Sequence record: PQ478073.1
Direction: 5' to 3' (one strand)
DNA length: 64,000 nucleotides
From: a phage
The position numbers and the translations under genes are program-made. Position 1 is the first letter of the stretch. Each line of letters opens with the position of its first letter. Below the pieces are notes generated by a model. It searched no databases. It was not told the origin of the DNA and saw only the letters and a program-made list of their open reading frames with translations. Shown here in pieces: positions 11,895 to 26,955 of the stretch.

Positions 11895-11900
11895 TGTACA

Positions 11901-11929
11901 TAGCCCGACATAAGTTCGGGCTATTTTTG
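11901..11929 (+). terminator. rho-independent terminator
   Basis: stem AGCCCGA/TCGGGCT then T-run. Confidence 0.65.
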
Positions 11930-11940
11930 TAAGGGGATAT

Positions 11941-12216
11941 ATGAATTATAAAGTTCTACAATATACATACAGTGTTTTGTTTGATTTACATCACAATGGA
12001 AGATATCTCAATACAATACGAGAAAACACATTCACTCATACTATCTGGATTAATCACTTAATAATGATACGTGAATATTTTGTTAATAGTGAGATAATCA
12101 TTCGTGGTAAAAAACAGAAGATAGAACAAGTTAATAGTTTTGGTGGTAAATTAGTACTATCATTTATAGATAGTAATACTAATGAAAGATATAGTATAGA
12201 TTTGGTGGACATATGA
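11941..12216 (+). CDS. hypothetical small protein, tandem paralog array A (member 1)
   Basis: ORF track; N-terminus MNYKVLQYTYSVLFDL. Confidence 0.6.
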   Translation: MNYKVLQYTYSVLFDLHHNGRYLNTIRENTFTHTIWINHLIMIREYFVNSEIIIRGKKQKIEQVNSFGGKLVLSFIDSNTNERYSIDLVDI

Positions 12217-12479
12217 ATTATAAAGATTTCCTACTAACATACAAGATTATTCGAGATTTAGCACACGACAATGATAGCCCTAGTCTAGAAGACACATGCA
12301 CTGAAATGATTCATACAATTCGTGGTAAGATTAAAAAAAAATTCAGTACTGTTATTATTGGTGATGACCATGCAGAATTTTCTGATATAATCATTAGACG
12401 TGATGGTAAAGTTGAGGTTCAGTACTACACTGATTTTGGATTTACCAGTATTCCGTTGGAGATATTCCCTTGGGATTAA
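12213..12479 (+). CDS. hypothetical small protein, array A (member 2)
   Basis: ORF track; MNYKDFLLTYKIIRDL; ATGA coupling. Confidence 0.6.
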   Translation: MNYKDFLLTYKIIRDLAHDNDSPSLEDTCTEMIHTIRGKIKKKFSTVIIGDDHAEFSDIIIRRDGKVEVQYYTDFGFTSIPLEIFPWD

Positions 12480-12781
12480 ATTTAAATGATATACAATTCA
12501 CTTATAAGATCCTATATGATTTGTATGATGTATACCTTGTTAGTAACAAAATAGGTTCACATAACCCATACAAAGAACAACCATTTATTGATTTATATAT
12601 TGAGTACTTAGATTCAGTAGGTGAATATATAAAAAAGAATTACAGTACTTTTATCGATGGAAATGATATATTCGAGTTCTCTGGAGTTAAATCATACAAT
12701 GGGATTATCCATGTTGAATTTCTTGAAATAACTGATAGGGGATTTATCGAGATTAAAGTTGTGAAGTTGGTGAATTTATAA
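12470..12781 (+). CDS. hypothetical small protein, array A (member 3), apparent TTG start
   Basis: ORF has no in-frame ATG; N-terminus LNDIQFTYKILYDLY parallels member 4. Confidence 0.5.
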   Translation: MGLNLNDIQFTYKILYDLYDVYLVSNKIGSHNPYKEQPFIDLYIEYLDSVGEYIKKNYSTFIDGNDIFEFSGVKSYNGIIHVEFLEITDRGFIEIKVVKLVNL

Positions 12782-12791
12782 GAGGTTACAT

Positions 12792-13103
12792 ATGTTATTA
12801 AATGATATACAATTCACATACAAATTTTTGTATATCCAATACGCTACGGTTGATGCTGGTGAATATCTCTACGATGAAATCTATCGTTCGCTATGGATAA
12901 AGTTTTTGGATGAATTACATGAATATTACCATGATTTGTGTATAGTTCGTGATAATAAAATATACAAATTCCGCGATATTGTTAGTCATAGCGGTAAGCT
13001 ACGATTGGAATTAAGTACTGATAGTGATGTTGATTGGATTGGTGTAAATTTACTGGAGTTGGAGAATGAAAAACAACTTAAAGGAAATACAAGTATTTTA
13101 TAA
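12792..13103 (+). CDS. hypothetical small protein, array A (member 4)
   Basis: ORF track; MLLNDIQFTYKFLYIQY. Confidence 0.6.
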   Translation: MLLNDIQFTYKFLYIQYATVDAGEYLYDEIYRSLWIKFLDELHEYYHDLCIVRDNKIYKFRDIVSHSGKLRLELSTDSDVDWIGVNLLELENEKQLKGNTSIL

Positions 13104-13350
13104 ATTCTTATACTTATCATATGTAAAAGATGAGTACTATGAAAGTGTGTATTATTTTTTATGGCAACATTACCGTACTATAGTAAGAGATTTATATATA
13201 GGAAAATCTATCATATCCAATGGTGAAAAATGTACCTGTACGGATGTAGTTAGTTTTAATGGTTCTTTAACACTGTGTTTCAGATGCGATAATAATAGTG
13301 GGTCATTTTCATTAAACGTATATCAGTTAGAAGGAATAAATTTTGAATAA
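13066..13350 (+). CDS. hypothetical small protein, array A (member 5)
   Basis: ORF track; GGAG RBS; MKNNLKEIQVFYKFLYLSY. Confidence 0.6.
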   Translation: MKNNLKEIQVFYKFLYLSYVKDEYYESVYYFLWQHYRTIVRDLYIGKSIISNGEKCTCTDVVSFNGSLTLCFRCDNNSGSFSLNVYQLEGINFE

Positions 13351-13543
13351 ATGTCCATATTGTAACAGTACTCAATTAGCTCGTTTCCGTTTAGATTCAG
13401 ACTGGGCGACTGGTGCTGGTGATTTCTTCCCTATTAATGATGATGCGGAATACACCGAAGAACAGCACAAAGATTTTGATAAATCATGGCGACCTGACAT
13501 TGAGTGCATTTATTGCCTTAATTGTGAGCGTGTTCATGACTAA
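13343..13543 (+). CDS. small zinc-ribbon protein (CPYC ... CLNC)
   Basis: ORF track; two Cys pairs. Confidence 0.55.
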   Translation: MNKCPYCNSTQLARFRLDSDWATGAGDFFPINDDAEYTEEQHKDFDKSWRPDIECIYCLNCERVHD

Positions 13544-13799
13544 AGCTGAACTAATAGTTCATACATATAAAATGATATCAAGTACTGAGTTATCATATAG
13601 TGCAGATAATCCAGTACTGGATTATTTTGTTGAATTATTGAAAGAGCATTATATTGGTAAATCACTGAATATTAATAATATTAATTTCACTATAACGGAT
13701 GTGGGACCAGGAAAAAACGTACTAATTGTATGTATTACTTCAACTGGTAACCCATTATACCCAATATCAGTAATTTTTGAGGTATTAGGTGATTTATGA
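13536..13799 (+). CDS. hypothetical protein (start moved from 13413 to internal ATG)
   Basis: track ORF overlaps upstream gene; ATG at 13536 overlaps upstream stop. Confidence 0.45.
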   Translation: MTKAELIVHTYKMISSTELSYSADNPVLDYFVELLKEHYIGKSLNINNINFTITDVGPGKNVLIVCITSTGNPLYPISVIFEVLGDL

Positions 13800-14086
13800 A
13801 TATCATATTAATACAAAAAACATATACTCTACTGATGAAAGAATATACTAATACTTATGATGAAAAGTGCAGTGCAAATCATAATATGTATGAATTCATT
13901 ACTCAAGAGTACAGGGATTATATATATGCTGTGTTAGTGGGTAGATATTTCAGTACTAGAAAATACACAAAACTTCAAATAGTTGATGTTTCTTTTTATT
14001 TCAATGGTCATATTACTATTCATAGTTTAGACCAAGATTCAACAACGTACTTAAACTTTTCATTTGATGAGGTAACATTTTTATGA
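13796..14086 (+). CDS. hypothetical small protein, array A-like
   Basis: ORF track; MNIILIQKTYTLLMKEY. Confidence 0.6.
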   Translation: MNIILIQKTYTLLMKEYTNTYDEKCSANHNMYEFITQEYRDYIYAVLVGRYFSTRKYTKLQIVDVSFYFNGHITIHSLDQDSTTYLNFSFDEVTFL

Positions 14087-14259
14087 GAACAGTATTTTTT
14101 ATCTGGAGTCTTTTTTCATTGGCAGTACTGACAGTATGTGGGATTTGTTTCCTTTCATCAATTAATACTTGGTATATCAATTTACTATTTCCATTTGTCG
14201 GTGTTGGTTTAGGGTTTACTTTGCATAGTGTATGTAAGGATTACAATGAGAACAAATGA
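14083..14259 (+). CDS. small hydrophobic membrane protein (about 58 aa), below ORF-track cutoff
   Basis: hand-read ORF MRTVFFIWSLFSLAVLTVCGICFLSS...; ATGA coupling. Confidence 0.4.
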   Translation: MRTVFFIWSLFSLAVLTVCGICFLSSINTWYINLLFPFVGVGLGFTLHSVCKDYNENK

Positions 14260-14524
14260 AGTACTTATTGCTGAAACAATGAAGATGATTTACAATATCA
14301 CGTCAGCACAGAATATGCCCTATCCAACTAAGTCTTTATTGAGGACTGTGTATCTGGGGATAGTACAGGAGTACTACAAATCCAAGCACCGAAGCATTAT
14401 TAGTGTTTATCGTGATTATGAAAGGATTCGTATTTTATTCTGGAACAAGAATCGAGTACGTTCTGAATGTGACCTAGTGGACTTTAAATTAGAGAATCTT
14501 TATTGCTATAAACAGGGACAATAG
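14246..14524 (+). CDS. hypothetical protein
   Basis: ORF track frame; AAGGA RBS before ATG at 14246. Confidence 0.55.
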   Translation: MRTNEVLIAETMKMIYNITSAQNMPYPTKSLLRTVYLGIVQEYYKSKHRSIISVYRDYERIRILFWNKNRVRSECDLVDFKLENLYCYKQGQ

Positions 14525-14542
14525 TTTAATTCATGATATAAT
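14514..14542 (+). promoter_or_regulatory. sigma70-like promoter GGGACA-16/17-TGaTATAAT
   Basis: extended -10 about 40 nt upstream of start at 14583. Confidence 0.45.
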
Positions 14543-14582
14543 AATGGGTAAGGAACAATAATTAACACAAGGAGTGTGTGAA

Positions 14583-15311
14583 ATGCTTGACCGTATCCGT
14601 TTCGCTACAGAGATGGCGAATGAATTAAACATGGCAAATTTCCAAATGTTAACATCAGTAATGGCTGAACATGCATGTGCTTATTCTGTAAGTGGTGTGC
14701 AGTGTGGTCAGGAGAATATGTTAGCAGATGTTTATAGTGAAGTGCAAAGTAAGCAATATAGTGTAAAGACATATAAGGATAAGTTTGTTAGTCTTTATAT
14801 GAACGAAGATATTGCCGAAGACCGTAAATTCACTGATTTTATTATTGAACGCCGAGTATCAGGTGTATCTAATCCTAATGCATCAAGCGAGGAAGTTTTT
14901 GCAGAAGTACTGAAAGATATATACGAAAATGAATTAAAAAGTAAGAATCATTACAATGTACGTGAAACGAACACAGTGCTCTTGGGATATGATGAAGACG
15001 AAGAATACTATTATTTTCGTATGACTGAAGTTCCTTTTGAATACAAATCTCCATATACAACTACAGTGAAAGAATTTACTGAAAAAAGTAAAAACTTCAT
15101 GAAGCATGAAGGAAATCGTTGTAGTATAAATGGTTATGACGAAAATGGCATTCACATTTATGAATGGGTTCACCCAAATTGTCAGACATACACTCGTTGC
15201 TTGAAAAAACGTTATAATTTAGAAGAGCATGAATCATTCTATTTTAAAGTTAAGAAGCAAGGTTATACTCGCCCCGCCGATTCTGAATTGATGGGTATGA
15301 TATATTTCTAA
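14583..15311 (+). CDS. hypothetical protein
   Basis: ORF track (GTG at 14574); AAGGAG RBS before ATG at 14583. Confidence 0.65.
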   Translation: MLDRIRFATEMANELNMANFQMLTSVMAEHACAYSVSGVQCGQENMLADVYSEVQSKQYSVKTYKDKFVSLYMNEDIAEDRKFTDFIIERRVSGVSNPNASSEEVFAEVLKDIYENELKSKNHYNVRETNTVLLGYDEDEEYYYFRMTEVPFEYKSPYTTTVKEFTEKSKNFMKHEGNRCSINGYDENGIHIYEWVHPNCQTYTRCLKKRYNLEEHESFYFKVKKQGYTRPADSELMGMIYF

Positions 15312-15321
15312 GGAAACTTCT

Positions 15322-15603
15322 ATGGATTTTTATCTACACACATGGACATACGAACAATATATTACATTATATCTTGAAATTATTAACACAGAACCTAGGT
15401 GTGGTTGTAGGTTCGCAGATATCATAAAAGAGTATGCTGACGAGTTCGAGTTTGTGTATCTTGGGTCTGATATATTTGTAAAAAGTGTAGGTAAAACCGG
15501 ACGAATCACTGATATAGATTACGACACTGTTAGTGTGAATTTCTATGTTGATTTTCCTGATGCTGGCGTTGATGGTGTATATTGTCTTTATGAAATAATT
15601 TAA
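15322..15603 (+). CDS. hypothetical protein
   Basis: ORF track. Confidence 0.55.
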   Translation: MDFYLHTWTYEQYITLYLEIINTEPRCGCRFADIIKEYADEFEFVYLGSDIFVKSVGKTGRITDIDYDTVSVNFYVDFPDAGVDGVYCLYEII

Positions 15604-15610
15604 ATTCTTA

Positions 15611-15635
15611 GGCCAGCGTTTGCTGGTCTTTTTTC
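15611..15635 (+). terminator. rho-independent terminator
   Basis: stem GCCAGC/GCTGGT then T-run. Confidence 0.6.
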
Positions 15636-15647
15636 GCAGGTACAAAG

Positions 15648-15950
15648 ATGTTCAGTATAGATTTAATTAACAGTACTATCAAAATGTTGGCTGATTTGGT
15701 GAGACAATCCAATGGAACTTTATATCCATCAATGTATAAAATGTTTGACCGATACATCAAGGATTGTAACATATCATTATATGGACTTGCTGTTGATATA
15801 GACGATTACTATGGAATTAATACTTCATATAAAACAGGAATTTTAATTGGTATTAATATAAAGATGGGGTATTTACCTTATTACTGTATAGGATTACCAG
15901 ATAATACTTTTGTAGAATATCCAGCCAGTACTATTAAATTAAGAGGATAA
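15648..15950 (+). CDS. hypothetical protein
   Basis: ORF track. Confidence 0.55.
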   Translation: MFSIDLINSTIKMLADLVRQSNGTLYPSMYKMFDRYIKDCNISLYGLAVDIDDYYGINTSYKTGILIGINIKMGYLPYYCIGLPDNTFVEYPASTIKLRG

Positions 15951-15957
15951 AACTAAA

Positions 15958-16536
15958 ATGAATGTATTAGAATTAAGTACTAAGCTGATTAGTATGCGTA
16001 ATGAGTGGTACGATTGGTTTTATAATGGTACTGATATGGATTTTTCAAAATATCCATTTATGGAATCAGGATGTGATGCAAGATACCGCTGGTTGAGCAA
16101 AGATTGTTCTGGTTTACATATTCTAGTTGACGATAGTGGTCAGGGAATTATAAAAGATTTACTTCAAGTTGAACAACTCGTCCATGATAATTGGTGTGAT
16201 AACGATCCATACCTTGGAAATATGATTTATGTAAGTGAAGATGATTGCATATTCGTTATCCAGCGTCATGGTAATTCTATGTTTTATGTAGCAGATAGCA
16301 GTACTCCAGAAGGTGCAGCAGCCGATGGACTTATGCCTAAGATTGATATATTGGAATTTGGATTACCTGAGCACTTCCAGATTAGTACTTTATACGATAT
16401 TCCACCACTTGAGTTCTTTGAAGAATTTAAATTGTACTACAATGATCTTCAAAAATTGAGTACTGATCGACGCATTGAAATAACTGTTAAGTACATGGAC
16501 GGAACGAAATTAACTGATACGGGGATAGAATTTTGA
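15958..16536 (+). CDS. hypothetical protein, paralog family F (PEHFQISTLYDIPPLEFF)
   Basis: ORF track; shared motif. Confidence 0.65.
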   Translation: MNVLELSTKLISMRNEWYDWFYNGTDMDFSKYPFMESGCDARYRWLSKDCSGLHILVDDSGQGIIKDLLQVEQLVHDNWCDNDPYLGNMIYVSEDDCIFVIQRHGNSMFYVADSSTPEGAAADGLMPKIDILEFGLPEHFQISTLYDIPPLEFFEEFKLYYNDLQKLSTDRRIEITVKYMDGTKLTDTGIEF

Positions 16537-17222
16537 TTAAAGATTTAGATAGAATTTTATATGTACTAAGGGGTGTAATTACATTACATCCACAAATCAA
16601 TCGAATTGAAAGTACATTTCAGTTGGAGTCAAGAGAAACTCCATATTCACATATATCAAATGTAGTTGGTTCACTCAGTACTGAAGACTCGTCTTACGAT
16701 ATTTGTGTATGTGAAGTACAACCAAGTTCGGATCTTGGATTTGCTATTTTTGATAAAGATCAAAATCTCATTAGTATGTTTCAGTGCAATAATCCTTTTT
16801 GGAAAACATGCCTGTATCCAGAGTGGGCTATGCTTGATCCAACCAAGAGTACCATTAAAGTTTATGACTCTAAAAATGATGAAGTCGTTATTGATTTGGA
16901 TGAGTCAATGTCAGAGGAAGAACACTTTCAGCTAATGATGATGCGTGCTATGCCGGAATACAATGCAATGATTAACACTGTGCAATACATTAAGGATACC
17001 ATGCCAGCGTTGCGTACACATGAGTTTTGTCATCCGGTATTGTATGAACATCTAGATTTAGACTTCAGTACTATTAAATTTAAAGATAGTGTTAAAAAAT
17101 ATATTCAAGAGAATGTTAAATTTGATTTTATTAGTACTATGAACAATAATCCAAAAACTAATTTTAGGCATCAGTACAATGAATCTTTGTCTAATGGACG
17201 TGATACCAGTTGGTGGAAATAA
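16533..17222 (+). CDS. hypothetical protein, paralog family F-like (EEHFQLMMMRAMPEY)
   Basis: ORF track; ATGA coupling. Confidence 0.65.
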   Translation: MIKDLDRILYVLRGVITLHPQINRIESTFQLESRETPYSHISNVVGSLSTEDSSYDICVCEVQPSSDLGFAIFDKDQNLISMFQCNNPFWKTCLYPEWAMLDPTKSTIKVYDSKNDEVVIDLDESMSEEEHFQLMMMRAMPEYNAMINTVQYIKDTMPALRTHEFCHPVLYEHLDLDFSTIKFKDSVKKYIQENVKFDFISTMNNNPKTNFRHQYNESLSNGRDTSWWK

Positions 17223-17223
17223 T

Positions 17224-17487
17224 ATGAATATTCAAGATAGATTACAATTACTGTACACACTTGAACAGGCTGCTTATGATCTTGTTCGAAAAATCTCAGA
17301 TGAACTACCTAAAGGAACTAAAGTTCGTGTACGTGAGATGAATTATTTTTCTGGAGTAATTGAAGAACAAGTACTAACAGTGAATAAAGTAACATACTAT
17401 GAATCTGAGTTGTCTATTCAGTGTGAATCGGATGATGGATTAATATCATATTATGGAACTGATGTAGATATAGAGGTAATAAAATGA
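17224..17487 (+). CDS. hypothetical small protein
   Basis: track ORF from 17179; ATG at 17224 follows upstream stop. Confidence 0.5.
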   Translation: MNIQDRLQLLYTLEQAAYDLVRKISDELPKGTKVRVREMNYFSGVIEEQVLTVNKVTYYESELSIQCESDDGLISYYGTDVDIEVIK

Positions 17488-18626
17488 CCCTTTTACAAAT
17501 ATATGAAGATTTAATGCACTTATGTAATACAAACGATGCATTCTTTTATGTGGATCATAAAAGTCCTGCTGGTGGCACGTATCGTGTATTCAGTTATCGT
17601 CTAGCATCATACACTGATTTCATGCAACCAAATGCGTTGGAAACCCGTGGCTCTATGTGGGAAATTGATGAAGAAGGTGAAATGATACGTTGTGCAGCAC
17701 GTACAATGAAAAAGTTCTTCAATGCTTACGAGAATCCTGCTACAATGTTCCCTGCTAACACCACATGCGATGACATTGCGGTAGTGATGCCTAAGTTGGA
17801 TGGTTCGATTATCAGTACTTACCGTGATAATGATGGTGAGATTCGTTGTAAATCACATACTGCATTGTATTCTGACCATGCGATTAACAGTACTCGACTT
17901 ATTAACGAGAACCAGAATTTGTATCAGTACATCGACGAAGCGGAACGTTTAGGTTACACAGTTAATATGGAGTATACAAGCCCAGAGTACCGAATTGTAT
18001 TACCATATCAGGTAGAACAACTGTTTGTACTGAACGTTCGTCATCGTGTGAGTGGTGAGTTGCTATGTGGTAAAGCACTACGTGATAAGTTTCCATGTCT
18101 TGCACAGTACAGTACTAATATGACTGGAAAAGATATTCATCACACTTTTCCGGTACGAAATACCTTCCGTGAAAGCGTGGAGGAAGTTCATAAAATGCTT
18201 GATATTGAGGGTTTTGTGTGCATCCTAAATAATGGGACAATGTGTAAAATAAAGACTGACTGGTACAGTTCATTACATCTTACAAAAGATAGTATTATTA
18301 TTGATTCTCATTTATATGAAGCAGTATTAAATGGTTCAAGTGATGATTTAAAACAATTGTTCAGTACTGATGAATATGCTATGCAAAAGATATTAAGAAT
18401 GGAACAATTGGTATTTTCGTGCTATAATGCATTACAAGATGAAGTAGAAAGCTTCGTCAAGGAACACAAGCACTTGGAGCGAAAGGAATTCGCAATGAAG
18501 GTTCAGGAGTGTTTAACTAATGAACTGAATCGTCAGGGCTTGGCCTTTGCAATGTATAACAATAAGAAAGTTGATTACAAAGAGACTCTTATAAAATACA
18601 TGAAAATTGTACTAAAGGATTTTTAG
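17484..18626 (+). CDS. rnlA: RNA ligase 1 (T4 RnlA type)
   Basis: KLDGS nucleotidyl-lysine motif; N-terminal region aligns by eye with T4 Rnl1; ATGA coupling. Confidence 0.85.
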   Translation: MTLLQIYEDLMHLCNTNDAFFYVDHKSPAGGTYRVFSYRLASYTDFMQPNALETRGSMWEIDEEGEMIRCAARTMKKFFNAYENPATMFPANTTCDDIAVVMPKLDGSIISTYRDNDGEIRCKSHTALYSDHAINSTRLINENQNLYQYIDEAERLGYTVNMEYTSPEYRIVLPYQVEQLFVLNVRHRVSGELLCGKALRDKFPCLAQYSTNMTGKDIHHTFPVRNTFRESVEEVHKMLDIEGFVCILNNGTMCKIKTDWYSSLHLTKDSIIIDSHLYEAVLNGSSDDLKQLFSTDEYAMQKILRMEQLVFSCYNALQDEVESFVKEHKHLERKEFAMKVQECLTNELNRQGLAFAMYNNKKVDYKETLIKYMKIVLKDF

Positions 18627-18656
18627 TACTATCTAGCCTAAGCACAAGGAGAAGTG

Positions 18657-18911
18657 ATGGCTAAACCTAAGTATAAAAATGACGGTTCCCTTTCTCCGAC
18701 TGAGTTCAGGAAAATACAAGAAGAAATCGATGAATTACAGCACAAACGCTCAATGAAAGGTGTGAAGATAAGTAAGAAACGAATCGAGAATACCTTCGGA
18801 TGTAGTAGTACTGAATACAAGAAGAAAAGGAAACCAAAAGGTGTTAAGCCGAGAATACATGATGTAACTCGCTATACATCGAAACGTGAAAATAAATTTG
18901 ATCCACTATAA
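18657..18911 (+). CDS. small highly basic protein
   Basis: ORF track; AAGGAG RBS; Lys/Arg-rich. Confidence 0.55.
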   Translation: MAKPKYKNDGSLSPTEFRKIQEEIDELQHKRSMKGVKISKKRIENTFGCSSTEYKKKRKPKGVKPRIHDVTRYTSKRENKFDPL

Positions 18912-18920
18912 GGAGTTCAT

Positions 18921-19151
18921 ATGAAAGTTGAAGTTCAGCATAGTATTGTTCAGGATATGTCAGTAGTTAAATTTCTTTCTCTGAAAGATTACTTCAGATG
19001 TATCAAGTTCCTAGAAGAATCTCAATTACAGTGGACCCCATTAAAGTACAGTTCATCCAATGATACTGCTAGTATTCGTTGTGATGAATCTGTACTTGTG
19101 AAAATCTCCAAGCGATTTGGAGTAGGAAAAGTTAATGAGCACAGTAAGTGA
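18921..19151 (+). CDS. hypothetical protein
   Basis: ORF track; AAGGAG RBS. Confidence 0.5.
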   Translation: MKVEVQHSIVQDMSVVKFLSLKDYFRCIKFLEESQLQWTPLKYSSSNDTASIRCDESVLVKISKRFGVGKVNEHSK

Positions 19152-19389
19152 CCTAAAATACTACAACAAAACTGCGGATACGTTTATTACTCATTTATAT
19201 GAAGAATTTAGTCGTATCCGTGAGGAATATACAGGTAAATGTATTTTATATAGTTCTTATCATAGTGGTGGAATTGAAAGTGCTTACATTACTAAAGTGA
19301 AGTTTTCTGATGACTATCAATTACTCTTTGAATTAGATGATTGTTTCGTTATTGAAGCTTGTTTGATAGTGGATGTTCTAGATAATTGA
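19135..19389 (+). CDS. hypothetical protein
   Basis: ORF track. Confidence 0.5.
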   Translation: MSTVSDLKYYNKTADTFITHLYEEFSRIREEYTGKCILYSSYHSGGIESAYITKVKFSDDYQLLFELDDCFVIEACLIVDVLDN

Positions 19390-19395
19390 GGACAT

Positions 19396-19710
19396 ATGAA
19401 TAAAGAACTTGCATTTGAGAGGATCGAAAAGTTAAAGTACATTGAAAAGGAACTAATAGAATCTGTCGAATCAATGGTCGAAGATTACGTTTTCGATTTT
19501 AAGAAAACATTGATTGGATGTAAAGTTAAATGCTGGGATCATACAATCAGAGAATGGTTCAGTACTATAATTCTTGATGTTAAAGTATCGCGTACTGCTA
19601 TTGGTAATTTAGTAAATGGTGAATGCTTTGTATACACTGAATACAATAACGGAACAAGAAACCTTTCAAGAGGATGGCACAAACTCGAAGATGTAGAATT
19701 CATTGAGTAA
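19396..19710 (+). CDS. hypothetical protein
   Basis: ORF track; GAGGA RBS. Confidence 0.55.
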   Translation: MNKELAFERIEKLKYIEKELIESVESMVEDYVFDFKKTLIGCKVKCWDHTIREWFSTIILDVKVSRTAIGNLVNGECFVYTEYNNGTRNLSRGWHKLEDVEFIE

Positions 19711-19722
19711 CAAGGAGTAATA

Positions 19723-20655
19723 ATGCCAACTATTACACTAACAGTTGGATTACCTGGGTGTGGTAAAACCACATGGGCAGTTCAAGAAATTAAAAATGCC
19801 AAATCCAAGACTATCAACATCAACCGTGATGATATTCGTGAATCTATGGCTGGGTCACATGATGCTTACAAATTCAACGATGCTAATGAGCAGTACGTAA
19901 CTAATTTACAGTTCAGTGCAGCAAATTCAGCAGCAGAGAATGGTTGGAACATCATCATATCCGATACAAACCTTAAACAACATTTCCGTAATCTCTGGAA
20001 AGTATGGGCTAAAGATAATGGTTATGATTACAAAGAAAAGAACTTCTATGATGATTTTGTACCTAATGAAGACCGTGGTGCAGATGTTCATGAATTCTTT
20101 AAGATTAAAGAGTTCGTAAAACTTTGTAAGAAATATAACCTCCAGCGTGAGCGTTCAGTACAAGATGATATCATTGACACAATGGCAGATACGTACTATT
20201 ATAGTAAGGCATTGCACATTGGTTACTATGGTAATTCACGAGAAGCTGCTGTTATCGTTGATATTGACGGTACTCTTGCTCATAAATGGGGTCGTAATCC
20301 TTACGATGAAAGTACTGTTCTTCAGGATACACCTGATGAAGAAGTTATTTTGTCTATTATCGCTGAAGCAGTTTTTCATAAACGCAAGATTATCGTCATG
20401 AGTGGGCGTACTGAAGGGTGTCGTGCTGATACCGAACAGTGGCTTAAGAATTGGGGTGTTCCTTACGATGCATTGTTTATGCGAGATATCGATGATAAAC
20501 GTCCTGATGATGTTGTAAAATTCGACCTGTACATGAAAAATGTGGTTGATCATTACGATGTTAAAAAGGTATATGATGACCGAGCACAAGTCGTATTCAT
20601 GTGGCGTAAGCTACTTGGCTTGAAAGTTTTTCAAGTTGCAGAAGGAAATTTCTAA
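19723..20655 (+). CDS. pnk: polynucleotide 5'-kinase / 3'-phosphatase (T4 Pnk type)
   Basis: Walker A GLPGCGKTT; HAD-phosphatase motif DIDGTL; ends QVAEGNF like T4 Pnk. Confidence 0.88.
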   Translation: MPTITLTVGLPGCGKTTWAVQEIKNAKSKTININRDDIRESMAGSHDAYKFNDANEQYVTNLQFSAANSAAENGWNIIISDTNLKQHFRNLWKVWAKDNGYDYKEKNFYDDFVPNEDRGADVHEFFKIKEFVKLCKKYNLQRERSVQDDIIDTMADTYYYSKALHIGYYGNSREAAVIVDIDGTLAHKWGRNPYDESTVLQDTPDEEVILSIIAEAVFHKRKIIVMSGRTEGCRADTEQWLKNWGVPYDALFMRDIDDKRPDDVVKFDLYMKNVVDHYDVKKVYDDRAQVVFMWRKLLGLKVFQVAEGNF

Positions 20656-20660
20656 TACAA

Positions 20661-20690
20661 AAGGGATCATATGTTGGTCCCTTTTTCTTT
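20661..20690 (+). terminator. rho-independent terminator
   Basis: stem AGGGA/TCCCT then T-run. Confidence 0.55.
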
Positions 20691-20704
20691 TAAGGAATAT
20701 TATA

Positions 20705-20881
20705 ATGAATGTAAAAACACAGATGTTATTACAAAAAGAATACTTAGAAAATATAGAAATGTTCTATAGATTGTCTTTATACGAAAATAAACATAAAAAA
20801 TATAGCTTTTCTAAACATCTAAACACAAGTACTGATGATTATCTATTTTCATCAATGTTTTATGTGAGAGGTTTATTATAA
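20705..20881 (+). CDS. hypothetical small protein (start moved from 20636)
   Basis: AAGGA RBS before ATG at 20705. Confidence 0.4.
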   Translation: MNVKTQMLLQKEYLENIEMFYRLSLYENKHKKYSFSKHLNTSTDDYLFSSMFYVRGLL

Positions 20882-21141
20882 TGGATAAATTTCACACAGA
20901 TATAACACAGATAGGTAATCTTATCAATAGTCTAATTACTGATTTAGAAGAAAAGTATTTAGGTCGAAATGTATACGTAGAAATGTATGAAACATATGGT
21001 GTTATTGATATGATTTATTACAGTGCATTGAAGTGTGAAATACGTTTAACAGTATGTTTGTTTGAAAAAAATACATTCAACAGAAGTACTGCAATTCGCC
21101 AAGTTGGAGTTGATGATATAGAATTATACGAGGAACAATGA
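20881..21141 (+). CDS. hypothetical small protein, loose family B
   Basis: ORF track. Confidence 0.55.
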   Translation: MDKFHTDITQIGNLINSLITDLEEKYLGRNVYVEMYETYGVIDMIYYSALKCEIRLTVCLFEKNTFNRSTAIRQVGVDDIELYEEQ

Positions 21142-21392
21142 TGTTTGAGCAGGACTTAGAGATATTCAAAAGTCATATTGATTACTTGACTATATTAGAA
21201 AATGATTTAACTACAAAGTACAAAGGTATTCGTGTTCTGTGCTGGTATGATGATTGGGATTATAAACGTGAACTCACTATTGATCGAATTTATTTCAGTG
21301 ACGGTGTACTAAATGTACATGGTGTAAATGATTTTGGTCATTCATATACATATTCTAATAATGCTAAATTTAAAAGGATCTACAATGAATGA
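21138..21392 (+). CDS. hypothetical small protein, loose family B
   Basis: ORF track; ATGA coupling. Confidence 0.55.
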   Translation: MMFEQDLEIFKSHIDYLTILENDLTTKYKGIRVLCWYDDWDYKRELTIDRIYFSDGVLNVHGVNDFGHSYTYSNNAKFKRIYNE

Positions 21393-21687
21393 ATATTATC
21401 ATAATTTATTCGATTACATAAAACTAATAGATGATCTTTCTTTTGAATTTCTCAGTACTGAAAAAGTTCTTGAACCTCTCTATTATGATTGTATTAGTTC
21501 ACTATGTTTAGATGAAAAAGAGATATTAGCAAACAACTTACCATCCACGGTCTGTACAATCAATGGTTCCAAGGCATTAGTGTGCGAGGTTAATTTTCAT
21601 AAATCACTTAATACAATTGTTTACAAGTTCGATAACACTTGGGTAAATCATGTAACCAGTAATATTAAATCTGTGAGATTTTTATGA
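21385..21687 (+). CDS. hypothetical protein (start moved from 21328)
   Basis: AAAGGA RBS before ATG at 21385. Confidence 0.5.
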   Translation: MNEYYHNLFDYIKLIDDLSFEFLSTEKVLEPLYYDCISSLCLDEKEILANNLPSTVCTINGSKALVCEVNFHKSLNTIVYKFDNTWVNHVTSNIKSVRFL

Positions 21688-21980
21688 ATATAAAAAAATT
21701 ATTTGAACAAGTAAATTTATTGTACTGGTGTTCAGACGGTTCAGATAAGGAATATAGTGAAGTTTATTTAGAAATGTTTAGAACTGAAATTCATCAAATT
21801 CGAAGATACCTAATTGATAACAAAACTAAAGTACAAGTAAGATACCATAACGGTACTTTAAAGAATGGTGTAATTATTGGATTGATAGTTACACGAATGT
21901 CTAATAATATTAAAGTTGCAGTTAGATTAATGACTGATGATGGTGTCTACACAATAGAAGCTAGTGAGATTATATATTAA
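21684..21980 (+). CDS. hypothetical small protein
   Basis: ORF track; ATGA coupling. Confidence 0.55.
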   Translation: MNIKKLFEQVNLLYWCSDGSDKEYSEVYLEMFRTEIHQIRRYLIDNKTKVQVRYHNGTLKNGVIIGLIVTRMSNNIKVAVRLMTDDGVYTIEASEIIY

Positions 21981-22286
21981 ATGGATATACAAACATTCAA
22001 TAAACTTAAGTACTATGATGATGGTTTTGCATTAATAATTAACGAACTTGATGGAATACCATACGAATATCATAATCAAGTAATGAAGATAATAAAATGT
22101 ATATGTGAAGAATTAAAAAGTATATTTAAAAATGAATATGTTTATGATTTAGGTAATAATAGCAAAAAACTATACATAAAGAAATTCTGGGGAACGCATT
22201 GCGGTTTGATGGTCGATTTAGGTTTAAGTTTAGACGATAATTCTGAATCATGTTCATTATATATAGATGAAATGCGAATATCATGA
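21981..22286 (+). CDS. hypothetical small protein
   Basis: ORF track. Confidence 0.55.
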   Translation: MDIQTFNKLKYYDDGFALIINELDGIPYEYHNQVMKIIKCICEELKSIFKNEYVYDLGNNSKKLYIKKFWGTHCGLMVDLGLSLDDNSESCSLYIDEMRIS

Positions 22287-22312
22287 GACGTATCAGAATT
22301 CGGTGATATAAT
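22284..22312 (+). promoter_or_regulatory. sigma70-like promoter TGAGAC-17-TATAAT with TGn extension
   Basis: same architecture as at 8432; -10 flanked by inverted repeat GGTGAT/ATCACC. Confidence 0.5.
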
Positions 22313-22343
22313 TTGATTACATCACCAATAGGGAGAAGTTGAA

Positions 22344-22670
22344 GTGAATGGTTCGTTTTTAACAATATTAGAAAAGACAACCGAGATGCTTTCTAGCTCG
22401 TTAATGCAGATTTTCAGTACTAATAATTTATACAATACCCAGGTGTTAGATTCAATTAATAATAACTATGTGGTAAGTATATCTGATGAAATATGTCCAT
22501 TTAACGCGTATTCAATTTATAGTGTAGAAGAGTTTCATATATCCGAGATTCGATGTGGTTTTGGTGCTTGGTTAGTTCTAAATGAACGTTCAGGGTTGTC
22601 TTTATACATCGAAGAAGTTAGTAAATTTATATACAAAGGAGTAGAATATGTTAACCCCAATTATTCTTAG
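22344..22670 (+). CDS. hypothetical protein, apparent GTG start
   Basis: ORF track; GGGAG RBS 8 nt upstream of GTG. Confidence 0.5.
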   Translation: MNGSFLTILEKTTEMLSSSLMQIFSTNNLYNTQVLDSINNNYVVSISDEICPFNAYSIYSVEEFHISEIRCGFGAWLVLNERSGLSLYIEEVSKFIYKGVEYVNPNYS

Positions 22671-23289
22671 CAGTGCATATGTAATCGGTATTATTATTTC
22701 TGGTATGCTTGCATATAACTATAACCGAAGTGTTCTAGGTTATGTAGTACTTGGTACAGTACTAAGTCCAGTGATTGCCATTGGTCTTCTTGTTATGCTA
22801 GGTGAGAAAAATACAAGCTTCTTTATTACTAAAGAACTTGATAAAATCACTCCAGCACCAGAAACAGTTATTCCAGAAGTTAAAGAAGAAGTTAAAGAAG
22901 AAGTTAAAGAAGTTGAAGTTCAAATGCAAGTTAAAGTGTATAATACACTTGAAGAAACTGATCCTAAAGTTGTAGTGAATGTAGTTCCAGTCGTTGAAGA
23001 TGTGAAACCAAAAGCTCCTAAAGTACAGAAAAATACTAAAACTGCAAAGAAAGCTCGTTACACTAAAGGTAAGAACAAAGGTAAATCTAAGGATGAACCA
23101 CAACTAGGTGTTCATGACCATACTGCACAAATTGCAACGGCAGCGACCGCAGCAGCAATCGTAACATCACCAATCTACAACAATGATGATTACAGTGATT
23201 ATAGCCGTCACAGCAGTTCTTCCTCTGATTCTTGTTCCTATGATAGCTCTAGTTCTGATTCAAGTTCATCGTCTGGAAGTTGTGATTAA
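22648..23289 (+). CDS. membrane-anchored protein with KEEVKEEVKE repeats and Ser-rich C-terminal tail
   Basis: ORF track; two N-terminal hydrophobic segments; low-complexity C-terminal half. Confidence 0.55.
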   Translation: MLTPIILSSAYVIGIIISGMLAYNYNRSVLGYVVLGTVLSPVIAIGLLVMLGEKNTSFFITKELDKITPAPETVIPEVKEEVKEEVKEVEVQMQVKVYNTLEETDPKVVVNVVPVVEDVKPKAPKVQKNTKTAKKARYTKGKNKGKSKDEPQLGVHDHTAQIATAATAAAIVTSPIYNNDDYSDYSRHSSSSSDSCSYDSSSSDSSSSSGSCD

Positions 23290-23618
23290 TGTCAATGAAA
23301 CCACTAATTCAACATAATATTTTTTATAGGTCATTATTCAAAATTCAAGATGATTTTTATCAGACGTTGAGTAATGATCTTATAGGTAAAACTGTACGAT
23401 ATTCGGAACAATACATCAAACGTATGACAAGTGAGTATATTGACCCTGAATACGAATACGACATTGAACACATTAATCCCAATACTAGAATGAAAATCAT
23501 TGAGATATTTAAGAATGGGAGAACTATAGGTGCTGAAATTGAGTACTTGAATTGTGATTGTTACATAGATACCGAGTTGAGTTTGGATTATCTTGTTTTA
23601 GTGGATGATGAGGAATAA
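23289..23618 (+). CDS. hypothetical small protein, loose family B
   Basis: ORF track. Confidence 0.55.
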   Translation: MSMKPLIQHNIFYRSLFKIQDDFYQTLSNDLIGKTVRYSEQYIKRMTSEYIDPEYEYDIEHINPNTRMKIIEIFKNGRTIGAEIEYLNCDCYIDTELSLDYLVLVDDEE

Positions 23619-23620
23619 TT

Positions 23621-23836
23621 ATGATAACATTTTTTGCAATATATGGATTTGTAGCATTTGTTACATTTATAACCAACTTTCTAGTACTCAATTGGGGTTG
23701 TTTTAAAGATGAAATCATGATTATCATGAATCTCCAAACAGCAGCACTGATGGCTATTATTTGGCCTGTAACATTAGTATATATTTTTATTTCACTTACC
23801 CAAGATATTATTAACAAATATAAGAGAAAGAAATAA
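23621..23836 (+). CDS. small two-TM membrane protein
   Basis: ORF track; hydrophobic segments. Confidence 0.5.
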   Translation: MITFFAIYGFVAFVTFITNFLVLNWGCFKDEIMIIMNLQTAALMAIIWPVTLVYIFISLTQDIINKYKRKK

Positions 23837-24087
23837 TGTTCAACACTGACTTATCACATCTGCGATATCTTATGTCTTTGGCTGATGATTTTATAAATGA
23901 TCTGAAGCCAAAATATATTGGTCAAGAAGTACGATTAATAAACTCCAGAGGGTATGGAAAGTATATTATTACTGATATGTATATTAGTGGTGGTGAATGG
24001 CGTTTTAAAATTAATACTTATCTTAAAGATGGTTCTTTTGCTGGAACACAAGTTACTAAACACACTAATATTATATGGTTGGAGTAA
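23836..24087 (+). CDS. hypothetical small protein, loose family B
   Basis: ORF track. Confidence 0.55.
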   Translation: MFNTDLSHLRYLMSLADDFINDLKPKYIGQEVRLINSRGYGKYIITDMYISGGEWRFKINTYLKDGSFAGTQVTKHTNIIWLE

Positions 24088-24089
24088 TA

Positions 24090-24833
24090 ATGAAACACTT
24101 CTTAGAAGTAACCGTACCTGATGATAAAGATTTATACATTGTAGGTGATTTGCATGGTAATGGTAAACTATGGGATGCTACAGTGAAAGAATTTGGTATT
24201 ACACACAATGATTATGTTTTCAGTGTAGGTGATATTATCGACCGTGGAGAACAAAATTCAAAGCTCCTTTTTGAATTTTTGTTCGGAGAAAATCGTTACA
24301 TGATTGCGGGTAATCATGAGATGATGTGCGTTGATTCGGAAACACTTCGAGATTGGTATCATTGTTGGATAAGTAATGGTGGTGATAAATTCCTTGATGA
24401 AGTTGGAGGAACAGGCATTCAATTCTTTCGTCAGTACTTAAAGGATCTCCCTATGATTATCCAAATCAATCACCGAGGATTGAAGATTGGGTTAGTTCAT
24501 GCTGGAGTTCCGTTGGAATATACAACATGGGAACGATTTGTTAATGGGACAAAATCACTTAGTGCTGATATAATTGATAAGTGCTTGTGGGATAGAAAAA
24601 CATTCGATTATTGTAGAACTAATAATACATATTATGCACCTAAGTTAGATGGAGTGCATTGTGTCTTTAGTGGACATACAGCAGTTACAGATCCACTAAT
24701 TTACGGTAATCGCATTTGGATTGATAGTCAGTTCTTGACGGGTGACTTAACTCTCGCTACTCCACAAAGTGGTGGAATGAGATACTTACGTAAAGAAAAA
24801 GATGAGTACTCATTCAATCGTTTCAAAAGGTAA
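24090..24833 (+). CDS. Ser/Thr protein phosphatase (PPP-family metallophosphatase)
   Basis: GDLHG, GDIIDRG, GNHE motifs; GGAG RBS before ATG at 24090. Confidence 0.8.
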   Translation: MKHFLEVTVPDDKDLYIVGDLHGNGKLWDATVKEFGITHNDYVFSVGDIIDRGEQNSKLLFEFLFGENRYMIAGNHEMMCVDSETLRDWYHCWISNGGDKFLDEVGGTGIQFFRQYLKDLPMIIQINHRGLKIGLVHAGVPLEYTTWERFVNGTKSLSADIIDKCLWDRKTFDYCRTNNTYYAPKLDGVHCVFSGHTAVTDPLIYGNRIWIDSQFLTGDLTLATPQSGGMRYLRKEKDEYSFNRFKR

Positions 24834-24838
24834 TAATT

Positions 24839-25108
24839 ATGCATGATGTAGTTAAAAAATATTTGAATGATAGATATATTATGAAAAAATCTATTAATTC
24901 TATCCTAAAAGACCATGCTAATCAAATACGTGAGATTCTATCAAATAAACTTATTGGTTGTTCAGTTGAGTTCAACTACAAAAAGAATGTCGTGAAGATT
25001 GGAGTTATTAAACGTGTAGTTGCTGTTTATGACCAAAATGTATATGTTGAAATTGAATATGATGGTAAATTATCACAATTAAGTACTGAAGATTTAACAT
25101 TTTTATAA
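24839..25108 (+). CDS. hypothetical small protein, loose family B
   Basis: ORF track. Confidence 0.55.
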   Translation: MHDVVKKYLNDRYIMKKSINSILKDHANQIREILSNKLIGCSVEFNYKKNVVKIGVIKRVVAVYDQNVYVEIEYDGKLSQLSTEDLTFL

Positions 25109-25118
25109 GGAAATAGAA

Positions 25119-25346
25119 ATGAAAGTAATTCAAGTTATGGTAGAAAAATACCAAACTGAAGATGGTCGTATTTTTGATTCAGCTAAACAAGCTGAACACC
25201 ATGAACGTATTATTTCGGGTGCACGTAAAGTATGTCCTACATGTAATGGAACACAACAAGTACCGTCAGAAGATTACCGCAGCTTTTATGCTTGTCCACA
25301 CTGTGATGGGAAAGGCTACGTAGAAAAACAAGAGGTATGGAAATGA
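25119..25346 (+). CDS. small zinc-ribbon protein (CPTC ... CPHC)
   Basis: ORF track; two CxxC pairs. Confidence 0.55.
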   Translation: MKVIQVMVEKYQTEDGRIFDSAKQAEHHERIISGARKVCPTCNGTQQVPSEDYRSFYACPHCDGKGYVEKQEVWK

Positions 25347-25756
25347 AATTGTATTGTTTAACTAATATGTACTGCCAAGGTGTCCAAGCTGGTATTCAAG
25401 CATTCCATGCTGGTGTTAAACTAATTAAAGAATATGAAGGTACTGCTTTCAGTACTATTATTGATGAATGGTACTATGAACACGAAACTATTGTAGTACT
25501 AAATGCTGGTGGACATGATAAGTTAAATTTTTATTATAACAACCTTAGCAAACAGGGAAAAGTTCCGTTTGCCAAATTCAATGAAGCTGGATTGAATGAT
25601 GCTATTACCTGTGTAGCAGTACTGTGTACGTCTGAAATGATTGAAGACATGGCTGTTATGCGTATGAATCTTCCTGCTGGTGATCAACTAATGCAAGTAA
25701 AATATGGTGCATTGTTTGACACATTAAAAGCAATCAGCACAATGAGGACTATTTGA
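25343..25756 (+). CDS. hypothetical protein
   Basis: ORF track; ATGA coupling. Confidence 0.55.
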   Translation: MKLYCLTNMYCQGVQAGIQAFHAGVKLIKEYEGTAFSTIIDEWYYEHETIVVLNAGGHDKLNFYYNNLSKQGKVPFAKFNEAGLNDAITCVAVLCTSEMIEDMAVMRMNLPAGDQLMQVKYGALFDTLKAISTMRTI

Positions 25757-26955
25757 TGGATTTTCCAGAGAAGTTATTTGTTGCACGTTCCTATGTAAAC
25801 CACAACCAAGTTGATGGTTTTATTATCGATGCAACAAAATCACATACAAAAGCGTTTGAAACAAAGAAAGAGAGAGCAGAGTACTGGGCAAAGAAGAACA
25901 ATCTTCCATCGTTATATATTGACAACGTTCCAACTACGGGATTTTGTGTAGTTGATAAATTAACAACTCATGCACGAGAAACATATTTCACGATCCGTCA
26001 CCCAGAAGGATTTGAATTTATGATTAGTGCCAAAAACATGAATGATTTAATTATCAATAACGATATAATCAAAGGTGTTTTTGTAGACCCAATGTTTTTC
26101 AACAATAACTTAGAATTAATTAATGGTAAAACAAAAACGTTTGCTAAGTTAGTTGAAAAAGAAAATAAAAAAGAACAACAAAAAGAAACTGTAGCAGGTC
26201 TTAAAGTTGGTGATGGTTTCACTTATCTCAAAGAAGATTACTATTACTGCGGTAAAGTTCATGCAATTTGTATAAAGAAAACTAAAGAATTTGCATACCC
26301 CGACAAAAGTTCTGTTTATCATTTACTTTTCAACAGTACTCGTGGAACTTATGCATTGAATCAACGTTTGGATAATTACAATCTGGAACCTCGTGCACTC
26401 TTGAATAAGAAGACTACGGCAGATGAAGAAATTAAACTTGCTAATGATTTTTGGCAAAGCTATAGAACAAACAGACATAACCCATTAGGTGAATCTAACA
26501 TTCCAGTACTGGTACACAATAAATCATTTAAAGCAAAAGACCTAAAAATTAAATATGAAGAAATAAATGTTGATGATCTTATGAATAATGGACGTTTCAA
26601 CGAGAACGTACCATTTATGACTAAAGATAATGAACAAACATATCGCGTATTTTTTGGTGTAAGTAATAATACAACGCGTAGTTATTATGGGCGTAGTGGA
26701 GATTATAATATCCATTATAATGATAAATTTGAACGCTTTAGTGCATATCCAGTTCAAATTGATGATAATGGGATTATGGTAATGGATGTTGATATTAATG
26801 AACACTCATCATTTAGTACATGGAATGGCTATCGTTCCCCATTCTTCCCACCAAATGAACGCAAAACATCAAGTTCTCGTTACTACCAAGATAAGCCGTG
26901 TCACGTTCAACTATCAATTAGTAATCCACTTTATATTGGAAAGTATTATCTATAA
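25753..26955 (+). CDS. hypothetical protein (400 aa)
   Basis: ORF track; ATGA coupling. Confidence 0.7.
   Translation: MMDFPEKLFVARSYVNHNQVDGFIIDATKSHTKAFETKKERAEYWAKKNNLPSLYIDNVPTTGFCVVDKLTTHARETYFTIRHPEGFEFMISAKNMNDLIINNDIIKGVFVDPMFFNNNLELINGKTKTFAKLVEKENKKEQQKETVAGLKVGDGFTYLKEDYYYCGKVHAICIKKTKEFAYPDKSSVYHLLFNSTRGTYALNQRLDNYNLEPRALLNKKTTADEEIKLANDFWQSYRTNRHNPLGESNIPVLVHNKSFKAKDLKIKYEEINVDDLMNNGRFNENVPFMTKDNEQTYRVFFGVSNNTTRSYYGRSGDYNIHYNDKFERFSAYPVQIDDNGIMVMDVDINEHSSFSTWNGYRSPFFPPNERKTSSSRYYQDKPCHVQLSISNPLYIGKYYL

Follow-up and report, generated by a model that had tools for sequence, protein, structure and literature searches.

The 64,000-nt window, by which we mean the whole stretch of DNA analyzed, is from an Asteriusvirus jumbo coliphage of the 121Q/PBECO4/G17 type; it matches phage E9.1 at 99.9% identity. 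Six open reading frames (ORFs) follow one another on the + strand within 3.2 kb: rnlA, encoding a predicted RNA ligase of 380 aa (positions 17484-18626), four small genes termed o1 (18657-18911, 84 aa), o2 (18921-19151, 76 aa), o3 (19135-19389, 84 aa, acidic), and o4 (19396-19710, 104 aa), and pnk (pseT), encoding a predicted polynucleotide 5'-kinase/3'-phosphatase of 310 aa (19723-20655). A conserved 242-aa ORF lies upstream of rnlA on the same strand (14583-15311). The genes from rnlA to pnk are tightly packed, with gaps of at most 30 nt and a single overlap of 17 nt, and the rnlA start overlaps the stop codon of the preceding ORF. Reading the upstream sequences by eye, we found purine-rich Shine-Dalgarno-like sequences 5' of o1, o2, o3, o4, and pnk, with the form AAGGAG ahead of o1, o2, and pnk. 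The string ends at a terminator-like hairpin with a T-run directly 3' of pnk (20659-20695, + strand), for which a consensus scan gave an 11-bp stem (20659-20685) followed by TCTTTT. The G17 record has an ARNold terminator at the same site (-10.9 kcal/mol), and the hairpin is likely the 3' end of the transcription unit. A scan of the window with ARAGORN and Rfam detected no tRNA and no known RNA family. Comparison with phage ph0011 showed all six ORFs to be under purifying selection (dN/dS 0.065-0.27). Together with the family matches given below and the Shine-Dalgarno-like sequences, this indicates that rnlA, o1-o4, and pnk are genuine genes rather than chance ORFs, so that the first-pass annotation was right to place four small ORFs between the two enzymes.

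The same annotation had named the outer genes as homologs of RnlA and Pnk, and the profile searches placed both proteins in the expected families. As judged from its sequence, the 17484-18626 product is an ATP-dependent RNA ligase of the T4 RnlA (Rnl1) family. It scores 293.2 bits against the NCBIfam equivalog TIGR02308 (cutoff 242.25), matches the Pfam families PF09511 (RNA_lig_T4_1, 1e-15) and PF20819 (T4_Rnl1_C, 6.6e-17), falls into phrog_562 (3.5e-109), and matches the T4 Rnl1 structure (PDB 2C5U) with an E-value of 1.1e-56, sharing 35.7% identity with T4 RnlA. In the adenylyltransferase domain, motif I K104-L-D-G-S aligns to T4 K99-E-D-G-S, making Lys104 the predicted nucleophile. The residues of the N-terminal subdomain that contact ATP in T4 (R54, K75, and F77), whose role in this Rnl1-specific subdomain has been described (PMC6379707), correspond to R55, K77, and F79. 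Motifs III, IV, and V are represented by E163, E242-G243, and K255/K257 (T4 E159, E227-G228, and K240/K242). In total, 11 of the 12 T4 essential residues are kept (R55, K77, F79, K104, D106, G107, E163, E242, G243, K255, and K257). PF20819 covers the all-helical C-terminal domain (residues 268-379; 62 bits against a cutoff of 27), the counterpart of the T4 tRNA-specificity domain. The dN/dS of rnlA is 0.067.

The 19723-20655 product is predicted to be a bifunctional polynucleotide kinase/3'-phosphatase of the T4 PseT type. It matches the Pfam families AAA_33 (3e-13) and HAD_PNKP (1.5e-43) and belongs to phrog_505 (1.8e-95), and its residues 2-310 align to residues 2-301 of T4 Pnkp (PDB 1LTQ, E 1.5e-40), with 34.3% identity to T4 PseT. 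The N-terminal P-loop kinase domain contains GCGK15T16, D36, R39, and R142 (T4 K15, S16, D35, R38, and R126), where R142 aligns with a one-residue shift that is also seen in KVP40, and it carries a clade-specific insert of 17-20 aa. The C-terminal HAD phosphatase domain contains D180-x-D182-G-T and keeps all the T4 residues D165, D167, R176, R213, D254, and D278 as D180, D182, R191, R229, D262, and D286. The dN/dS of pnk is 0.092.

The four genes between the enzymes fall into two groups, and the earlier suggestion that they could be accessory factors fared differently for each. The o1 product was correctly described as highly basic (pI 10.1, 24 Lys+Arg among 84 residues). It belongs to phrog_15306, and its gene directly follows rnlA in the Rak2-like jumbo phages that were compared; its homologs, found in 62 phage records by tblastn and in 63 protein clusters, all lie within one clade, and its dN/dS is 0.12. 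Pfam, PDB, and fold searches gave no match for o1, and its AF2 model (pLDDT 80, pTM 0.47) shows a single long helix (residues 14-45) with a basic tail. A candidate helix-turn-helix in o1 (GVKISKKRIENTFGCSSTEYKK) was rejected: the model has one long helix without such a motif, the segment is deleted in RaK2-type orthologs, and no helix-turn-helix Pfam family matched among 41 members. No other small ORF of the region is as conserved as o2 (phrog_14730), whose homologs occur in 71 phage records with identities of 61-73% across genera; wherever it was found in a relative, it lies between the two enzyme genes. It has 18 invariant residues, mostly polar, and its dN/dS of 0.065 is close to that of RnlA; the AF2 model (pLDDT 83) predicts the order strand-strand-helix-strand-strand-helix. 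The homologs of o2 group into just 30 protein clusters. When 1.84 billion representative proteins were searched with a profile, only three real clusters came back, none outside the clade, so that independent genomic contexts for o2 are absent. From their distribution, o1 and o2 are clade-core genes, kept like the 242-aa ORF in the examined genera of jumbo phages. Their conservation between the enzymes is compatible with an accessory role, although it is no proof of one.

The suggestion did not hold up for o3 and o4. The former, which has no PHROG or Pfam match, was not found in phAPEC6, 7t3, GAP32, RaK2, or fHe-Yen9-04; its dN/dS of 0.27 indicates that it is still coding. The latter (phrog_31355, dN/dS 0.18) is only 34% identical to phAPEC6 gp373 at the same position and was not found in 7t3, GAP32, RaK2, or fHe-Yen9-04. 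These two genes are variable cargo, differing even between close relatives, and are therefore unlikely to be core factors. The products of o1-o4 looked alike by eye. All-against-all BLASTP, iterated HMM, and phmmer searches gave nothing significant, and the idea of a paralogous small-ORF family dispersed over the region was rejected.

The 242-aa ORF has the same genus-level counts as o2 (71 phage records, 59-68% identity in other genera). It belongs to phrog_16105, a family without annotated function, and gave no match in Pfam or NCBIfam, or in the PDB by sequence or profile search. Likewise, Pfam, PHROG, and NCBIfam searches gave no function for a conserved 400-aa ORF. Of 52 small ORFs compared with a colinear GAP32 stretch of 50 kb, only 13 were conserved, the best being o2 at 70%. 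The window holds about 30 genes between 11.9 and 24 kb, and just five of them have a GAP32 homolog, namely the 242-aa ORF, rnlA, o1, o2, and pnk. The same five genes were found in 7t3, RaK2, fHe-Yen9-04, and two relatives from metagenomes, L013 and L016. L015, the most divergent relative and also metagenomic, keeps four of them, with o2 not detectable and with the genes for the 243-aa protein, RnlA, and o1 directly abutting.

Taken together, the Asteriusvirus locus is very probably orthologous to the tRNA repair pair rnlA...pseT of T4, whose ancestral arrangement it shares. We infer the activity, the tRNA substrate, and the counter-defense role of the Asteriusvirus enzymes from this correspondence. 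Under this reading, the tRNA anticodon loop would be cut by an anticodon nuclease of the host, such as PrrC or RloC or one with an equivalent function, leaving a 2',3'-cyclic phosphate and a 5'-OH. The C-terminal HAD domain of Pnk, with Asp180 of the DIDGT motif as the nucleophile, would take off the cyclic or 3' phosphate, and the N-terminal P-loop kinase would phosphorylate the 5'-OH. RnlA, steered to the tRNA by its C-terminal domain, would self-adenylylate at Lys104, transfer AMP to the 5'-phosphate, and seal the loop. Healing and sealing against anticodon nucleases is what is generally accepted for such a pair on the basis of T4. The same enzyme pair has been proposed to counter Prr in the sister phage phAPEC6 (PMC7247149), and the heal-and-seal reading has been stated for jumbo phages in general (PMC7824862). 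None of the phAPEC6 orthologs, gp372-376, is present in the virion proteome of that phage, and the proteins are therefore intracellular.

An alternative to tRNA repair as defense evasion is that the pair serves housekeeping, either in general repair of RNA and DNA ends, in the processing of phage transcripts or tRNAs, or in the attachment of tail fibers by RnlA. T4 RnlA (gp63) is annotated with both a ligase role and a non-catalytic role in tail-fiber attachment, and this second role could be the selected function here. T4 Pnkp acts on DNA ends too. In addition, the 9 kb downstream encode two metallophosphoesterases, a PTH2-like hydrolase, and a DNA ligase, and the compact relative L015 has genes for a metallophosphoesterase and a DNA ligase no more than 2.5 kb downstream of pnk, which suggests a general nucleic-acid maintenance neighborhood. 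However, the C-terminal tRNA-specificity domain is kept, and both healing activities and the sealing enzyme are encoded in one string, as in T4. The absence of RnlA from the phAPEC6 virion weighs little against fiber attachment, since a catalyst of that step need not be found there. On balance, we regard a housekeeping role as improbable. A different doubt concerns the ligase itself. At motif Ia, T4 S118-K119 corresponds to S124-H125, and the T4 K119 position is His in all eight Rak2-like sequences, whereas all seven other phage RnlA proteins have Lys or Arg there. Wang et al. are said to have reported in 2003 that K119 is among the essential residues of T4 Rnl1. In the related fungal ligase Trl1, the motif Ia Lys touches the ATP beta-gamma phosphate and probably also the RNA 5'-phosphate (PMC6379707), so that the chemistry of the clade RnlA may differ in detail. 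That the substitution leaves the enzyme catalytically altered or inactive, with the pair no longer acting to heal and seal, is nevertheless very unlikely: the remaining essential residues are all intact, rnlA is under strong purifying selection throughout the clade, and His could still supply a charge or a hydrogen-bond donor. Moreover, the neighboring Lys (T4 K117) is retained in all 13 aligned Rak2-like and T4-type sequences, with only Caulobacter and Campylobacter phage proteins differing.

While these alternatives concern the two enzymes, another extends the tRNA repair reading to their neighbors. The 242-aa protein, RnlA, o1, o2, and Pnk might form a five-gene repair module of Rak2-like jumbo phages, in which o1, o2, and the 242-aa protein are dedicated partners that could serve as a scaffold, inhibit the attacking nuclease, or act as a basic adaptor binding RNA or tRNA. 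The selective conservation of these five genes in GAP32, their recurrence in the other relatives, the RnlA-like constraint and invariant residues of o2, the strongly basic character of o1, and the AAGGAG sequence common to o1, o2, and pnk all favor this idea. Against it, all three partner families are limited to a single clade with colinear genomes, and their co-occurrence is thus not independent evidence; apart from synteny, nothing in their context and no fold, Pfam, PDB, or profile search links them to RNA-binding or RNA-repair proteins. In RaK2-type o1, 17 residues are missing from the center, o2 was not detectable in L015, and variable ORFs are freely inserted between these genes. The gaps of T4 and KVP40 hold unrelated genes, and in T4 RnlA and Pnk alone suffice for tRNA repair. 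We therefore consider dedicated partners unlikely, and the four gap genes are not demonstrably part of the repair pathway. It is similarly doubtful that Rak2-like phages possess an expanded RNA-repair module in which three clade-specific proteins (the basic helical o1, the alpha/beta o2, and the 242-aa protein) accompany an RnlA with the motif Ia variant and a Pnk with the insert, and might recruit damaged tRNA or neutralize the attacking nuclease.

Both GenBank records and publications already document a tRNA repair pair in 121Q-type jumbo phages. As a phage counter-defense it is a textbook case, and the locus contributes no new type of system; what is new is only the clade-wide conservation of the two small gap genes o1 and o2. 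With the 242-aa ORF, they are kept while their neighbors turn over, and all three are reasonable first targets in a search for partners of phage RNA repair. For enzymologists of RNA ligases, the natural His at a T4-essential position throughout a clade provides a test case.

Orthologous clusters are present in other Rak2-like phages (121Q genes 438-443, phAPEC6 gp376-372, G17_00487-00482, GAP32_080-084, and RaK2 rnlA/pseT), with 90-100% nucleotide identity within Asteriusvirus, and the GenBank records of these relatives already name both enzymes. These clusters do not differ substantially from the one in the window. In every Rak2-like genus examined, three to five small genes separate rnlA from the pnk that follows: four gap ORFs are found in the window, 121Q, and G17, three in phAPEC6 and PBECO4, three with another gene in the middle in GAP32, 7t3, and fHe-Yen9-04, and five in RaK2. 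The T4 locus shares the two families, their domain architectures, their strand and order, and even the number of small genes in the gap (rnlA-alc-pseT.3-pseT.2-pseT.1-pseT, on one strand). It differs in its gap genes, since alc and pseT.1-3 are unrelated to o1-o4, in having Lys119 in motif Ia where the window RnlA has His, in lacking the insert of the Pnk kinase domain, and in having denA upstream. Vibrio phage KVP40 likewise has rnlA, five small genes, and pseT on the same strand, with gap genes that include spanins and are unrelated to o1-o4. The hhalign probabilities between the T4 gap genes and o1-o4 are below 4%, as are all those obtained when o1, o2, and the 242-aa protein were considered as remote homologs of alc, pseT.1-3, the KVP40 spanins, or denA, an idea that was accordingly rejected. 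Because T4 and KVP40 share the spaced layout with unrelated gap genes, the spacing between rnlA and pnk is ancestral rather than special, and KVP40 shows that it is widespread among T4-type phages. The bacterial Pnkp1-Rnl-Pnkp2 system for RNA repair is a multi-subunit complex with another ligase and a second Pnkp. Its Pnkp1 (PDB 4XRP), a T4-like kinase-HAD phosphatase, matches the window Pnk over its full length (E 2.4e-31), whereas no comparable complex components are detectable at this locus, which in its two enzymes and their order resembles the T4 pair.

The first-pass annotation had described six consecutive plus-strand ORFs at 17484-20655, bounded by genes for a T4-type RNA ligase 1 (RnlA) and a T4 PseT-type polynucleotide kinase/3'-phosphatase (Pnk), and the coordinates are exactly as it gave them. 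The co-oriented string consists of rnlA (17484-18626, 380 aa), four small ORFs numbered o1 (18657-18911, 84 aa), o2 (18921-19151, 76 aa), o3 (19135-19389, 84 aa) and o4 (19396-19710, 104 aa), and pnk (19723-20655, 310 aa), with spacing of at most 30 nt and a single 17-nt overlap. Upstream sequence inspected by eye contains an AAGGAG Shine-Dalgarno motif before each of o1, o2 and pnk. A plus-strand terminator-like hairpin with a T-run (20659-20685) lies directly 3' of pnk, and a terminator is also annotated at this site in the G17 GenBank record. Since the next terminator-like hairpin 5' of the cluster on the same strand is at 15610-15629, the cluster may be part of a single unit of about 11 genes. 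Promoter-like matches did not exceed the frequency seen in shuffled sequence, and no promoter is claimed. Across the window (1-64000), the plus strand holds 109 of the 111 non-overlapping ORFs of at least 60 aa, the GC skew is positive throughout, and no tRNA genes or Rfam families were found.

Identity over the 4-kb region is 99.9% with Escherichia phage vB_EcoM_E9.1 and 90-99% with 121Q, G17, PBECO4, phAPEC6 and further jumbo phages of Asteriusvirus, which have genomes of about 350-380 kb. Both enzymes are already named in Asteriusvirus records, as RNA ligase (RnlA) and polynucleotide kinase/phosphatase, and a comparative study reports Rnl1 with PNK-HAD as a common RNA-repair complement of jumbo phages (PMC7824862). 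For phAPEC6, a role of the pair in countering Prr has been proposed in print (PMC7247149). The identification of a T4-type repair pair is thus right but already known; what goes slightly beyond existing annotation is limited to a histidine in motif Ia of the ligase and the conserved genes o1, o2 and a 242-aa ORF.

RnlA scores 293 bits, against a cutoff of 242, with the NCBIfam equivalog for the T4 RnlA family RNA ligase, and matches the sequence of the T4 Rnl1 crystal structure with an E-value of 1e-56. Pfam recognises in it the adenylyltransferase domain as well as the C-terminal domain, the latter being the source of tRNA specificity in T4 Rnl1. Aligned with other phage RnlA proteins (15 sequences in all), it retains 11 of the 12 mapped positions that are essential in T4 (R55, K77, F79, K104, D106, G107, E163, E242, G243, K255 and K257). 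The only mapped position that differs is in motif Ia, where the window protein has S124-H125 and T4 has S118-K119; Lys119 is an essential residue of T4 Rnl1. This histidine was present in all eight Rak2-like RnlA sequences examined (the jumbo-phage clade that includes Asteriusvirus), three divergent metagenomic ones among them, whereas all seven other phage RnlA proteins carry Lys or Arg. In the related fungal ligase Trl1, the lysine of motif Ia contacts the beta-gamma phosphate of ATP and has been proposed to hold the RNA 5'-phosphate (PMC6379707). Because purifying selection on rnlA is strong (dN/dS 0.067) and all else is intact, we infer from the sequence that H125 is probably a tolerated lineage-specific variant rather than a sign of inactivation.

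The family assignment of Pnk holds equally: its alignment with T4 Pnkp (1LTQ; E-value 1.5e-40) covers the protein from end to end, as does that with bacterial Pnkp1 (4XRP). The kinase residues K15, T16, D36, R39 and R142 are kept, R142 corresponding to T4 R126 through a one-residue shift common to KVP40, as are all the phosphatase residues (D180, D182, T184, R191, S227, R229, D262, K266, D285 and D286). An insertion of 17-20 aa in the kinase domain (residues about 113-135), located between the T4 beta-strand region and the R126-equivalent helix, occurs in all Rak2-like Pnk proteins and is lacking in those of T4 and KVP40.

By analogy with T4, the two enzymes together are best explained as a T4-type tRNA repair system. 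A host anticodon nuclease would leave 2',3'-cyclic-phosphate and 5'-OH ends, both of which Pnk would heal, and RnlA would then seal the tRNA anticodon loop. The sequence data establish family membership, architecture, catalytic residues, co-orientation and selection; the catalytic activities, the substrate and a role in evading host defence are predicted from the T4 precedent.

All four small ORFs are real genes (dN/dS 0.065 to 0.27 against phage ph0011), and they fall into two classes. The variable class comprises o3, which matches no PHROG and is lacking in phAPEC6-type Asteriusviruses as well as in all other genera examined, and o4, which is just 34% identical to the phAPEC6 gene at its position and absent from the other genera examined. 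The conserved class, o1 and o2, is kept between rnlA and pnk throughout the Rak2-like genera examined (7t3, GAP32, CBB, BF, fHe-Yen9, Erwinia and Xanthomonas phages, RaK2 and K64-1), with a shortened o1 in RaK2 and K64-1. As had been noted, o1 is highly basic (pI 10.1; 24 Lys+Arg in 84 residues); its predicted structure is a long helix with a basic tail, and fold, PDB and Pfam searches returned no match. None of the orthologs gp372-376 is present in the phAPEC6 virion proteome.

When the window was compared with colinear GAP32 sequence (50 kb), homologs were found for only 13 of 52 small ORFs. In the interval 11.9-24 kb they were found for only five of about 30 ORFs: the 242-aa ORF (65% identity), rnlA (58%), o1 (60%), o2 (70%) and pnk (57%). 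The conservation of o1 and o2 is therefore unusual against the surrounding genes. The same five-gene set recurs in 7t3, RaK2, fHe-Yen9-04 and two metagenomic loci (L013 and L016). In the most divergent relative, metagenomic locus L015, o2 is not detectable, and the compact order is Dam, a 243-aa counterpart of the 242-aa ORF that directly adjoins rnlA, RnlA, o1, a 78-aa ORF, Pnk, a 210-aa ORF, a metallophosphoesterase, a 353-aa ORF and DNA ligase. The 242-aa ORF (14583-15311; phrog_16105) is 59-68% identical to its homologs in other Rak2-like genera, always just upstream of rnlA; its family spans 71 phage records, with genus-level counts equal to those of o2, and gave no match in searches of Pfam, NCBIfam and PDB.

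The suggestion that the small ORFs are accessory factors fares differently for the two classes: the conserved position of o1 and o2 is compatible with it and the variability of o3 and o4 speaks against it. For o1, o2 and the 242-aa protein, conserved position is the sole argument, and since all three families occur only within a single clade of colinear phages, their presence alongside the enzymes is inseparable from shared ancestry. An accessory role for these three is possible but rather unlikely.

Small genes turn over rapidly in the region 11900-24000. Variable ORFs are inserted between o1 and o2 in GAP32, 7t3 and fHe-Yen9-04, and between o2 and pnk in Asteriusvirus and RaK2. Five paralogous ORFs of 88-103 aa lie in tandem at 11941-13350, with BLASTP E-values of 8e-6 to 6e-8 between linked, mostly neighbouring, members, and none of the five has a homolog in the colinear GAP32 sequence. 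A 213-aa protein (22648-23289), hydrophobic at its N-terminus, contains repeats rich in Lys, Glu and Val and ends in a tail rich in Ser and Asp; it had no match in a Pfam search. A cluster for nucleic-acid and translation maintenance lies 3.5-8.5 kb downstream of pnk (24075-29196), encoding a calcineurin-like phosphoesterase (24075-24833), a PTH2-like peptidyl-tRNA hydrolase (25337-25756; its score of 23.1 bits lies just at the Pfam threshold), a 400-aa conserved protein (25753-26955), an ATP-dependent DNA ligase (26967-28385) and a second metallophosphoesterase (28405-29196). Three of these (the first phosphoesterase, the 400-aa protein and the ligase) have homologs in L015 that lie within 2.5 kb downstream of pnk. 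Further along, two large paralogs (48643-51339, 898 aa; 51865-54684, 939 aa; 27% identity, E-value 5e-62) stand beside a second paralog pair (54752-55318, 188 aa; 55325-55846, 173 aa).

In T4, the order rnlA-alc-pseT.3-pseT.2-pseT.1-pseT on one strand likewise places four small genes between the enzymes, none of which is known to have a part in repair. KVP40 has five genes in this interval, two of them spanins. Profile comparisons did not link any of o1-o4 to the genes that fill this interval in T4 or KVP40. Because both T4 and KVP40 also have intervening genes, an enzyme pair with small genes between is the usual arrangement in T4-type phages, an ancestral layout rather than a special one.
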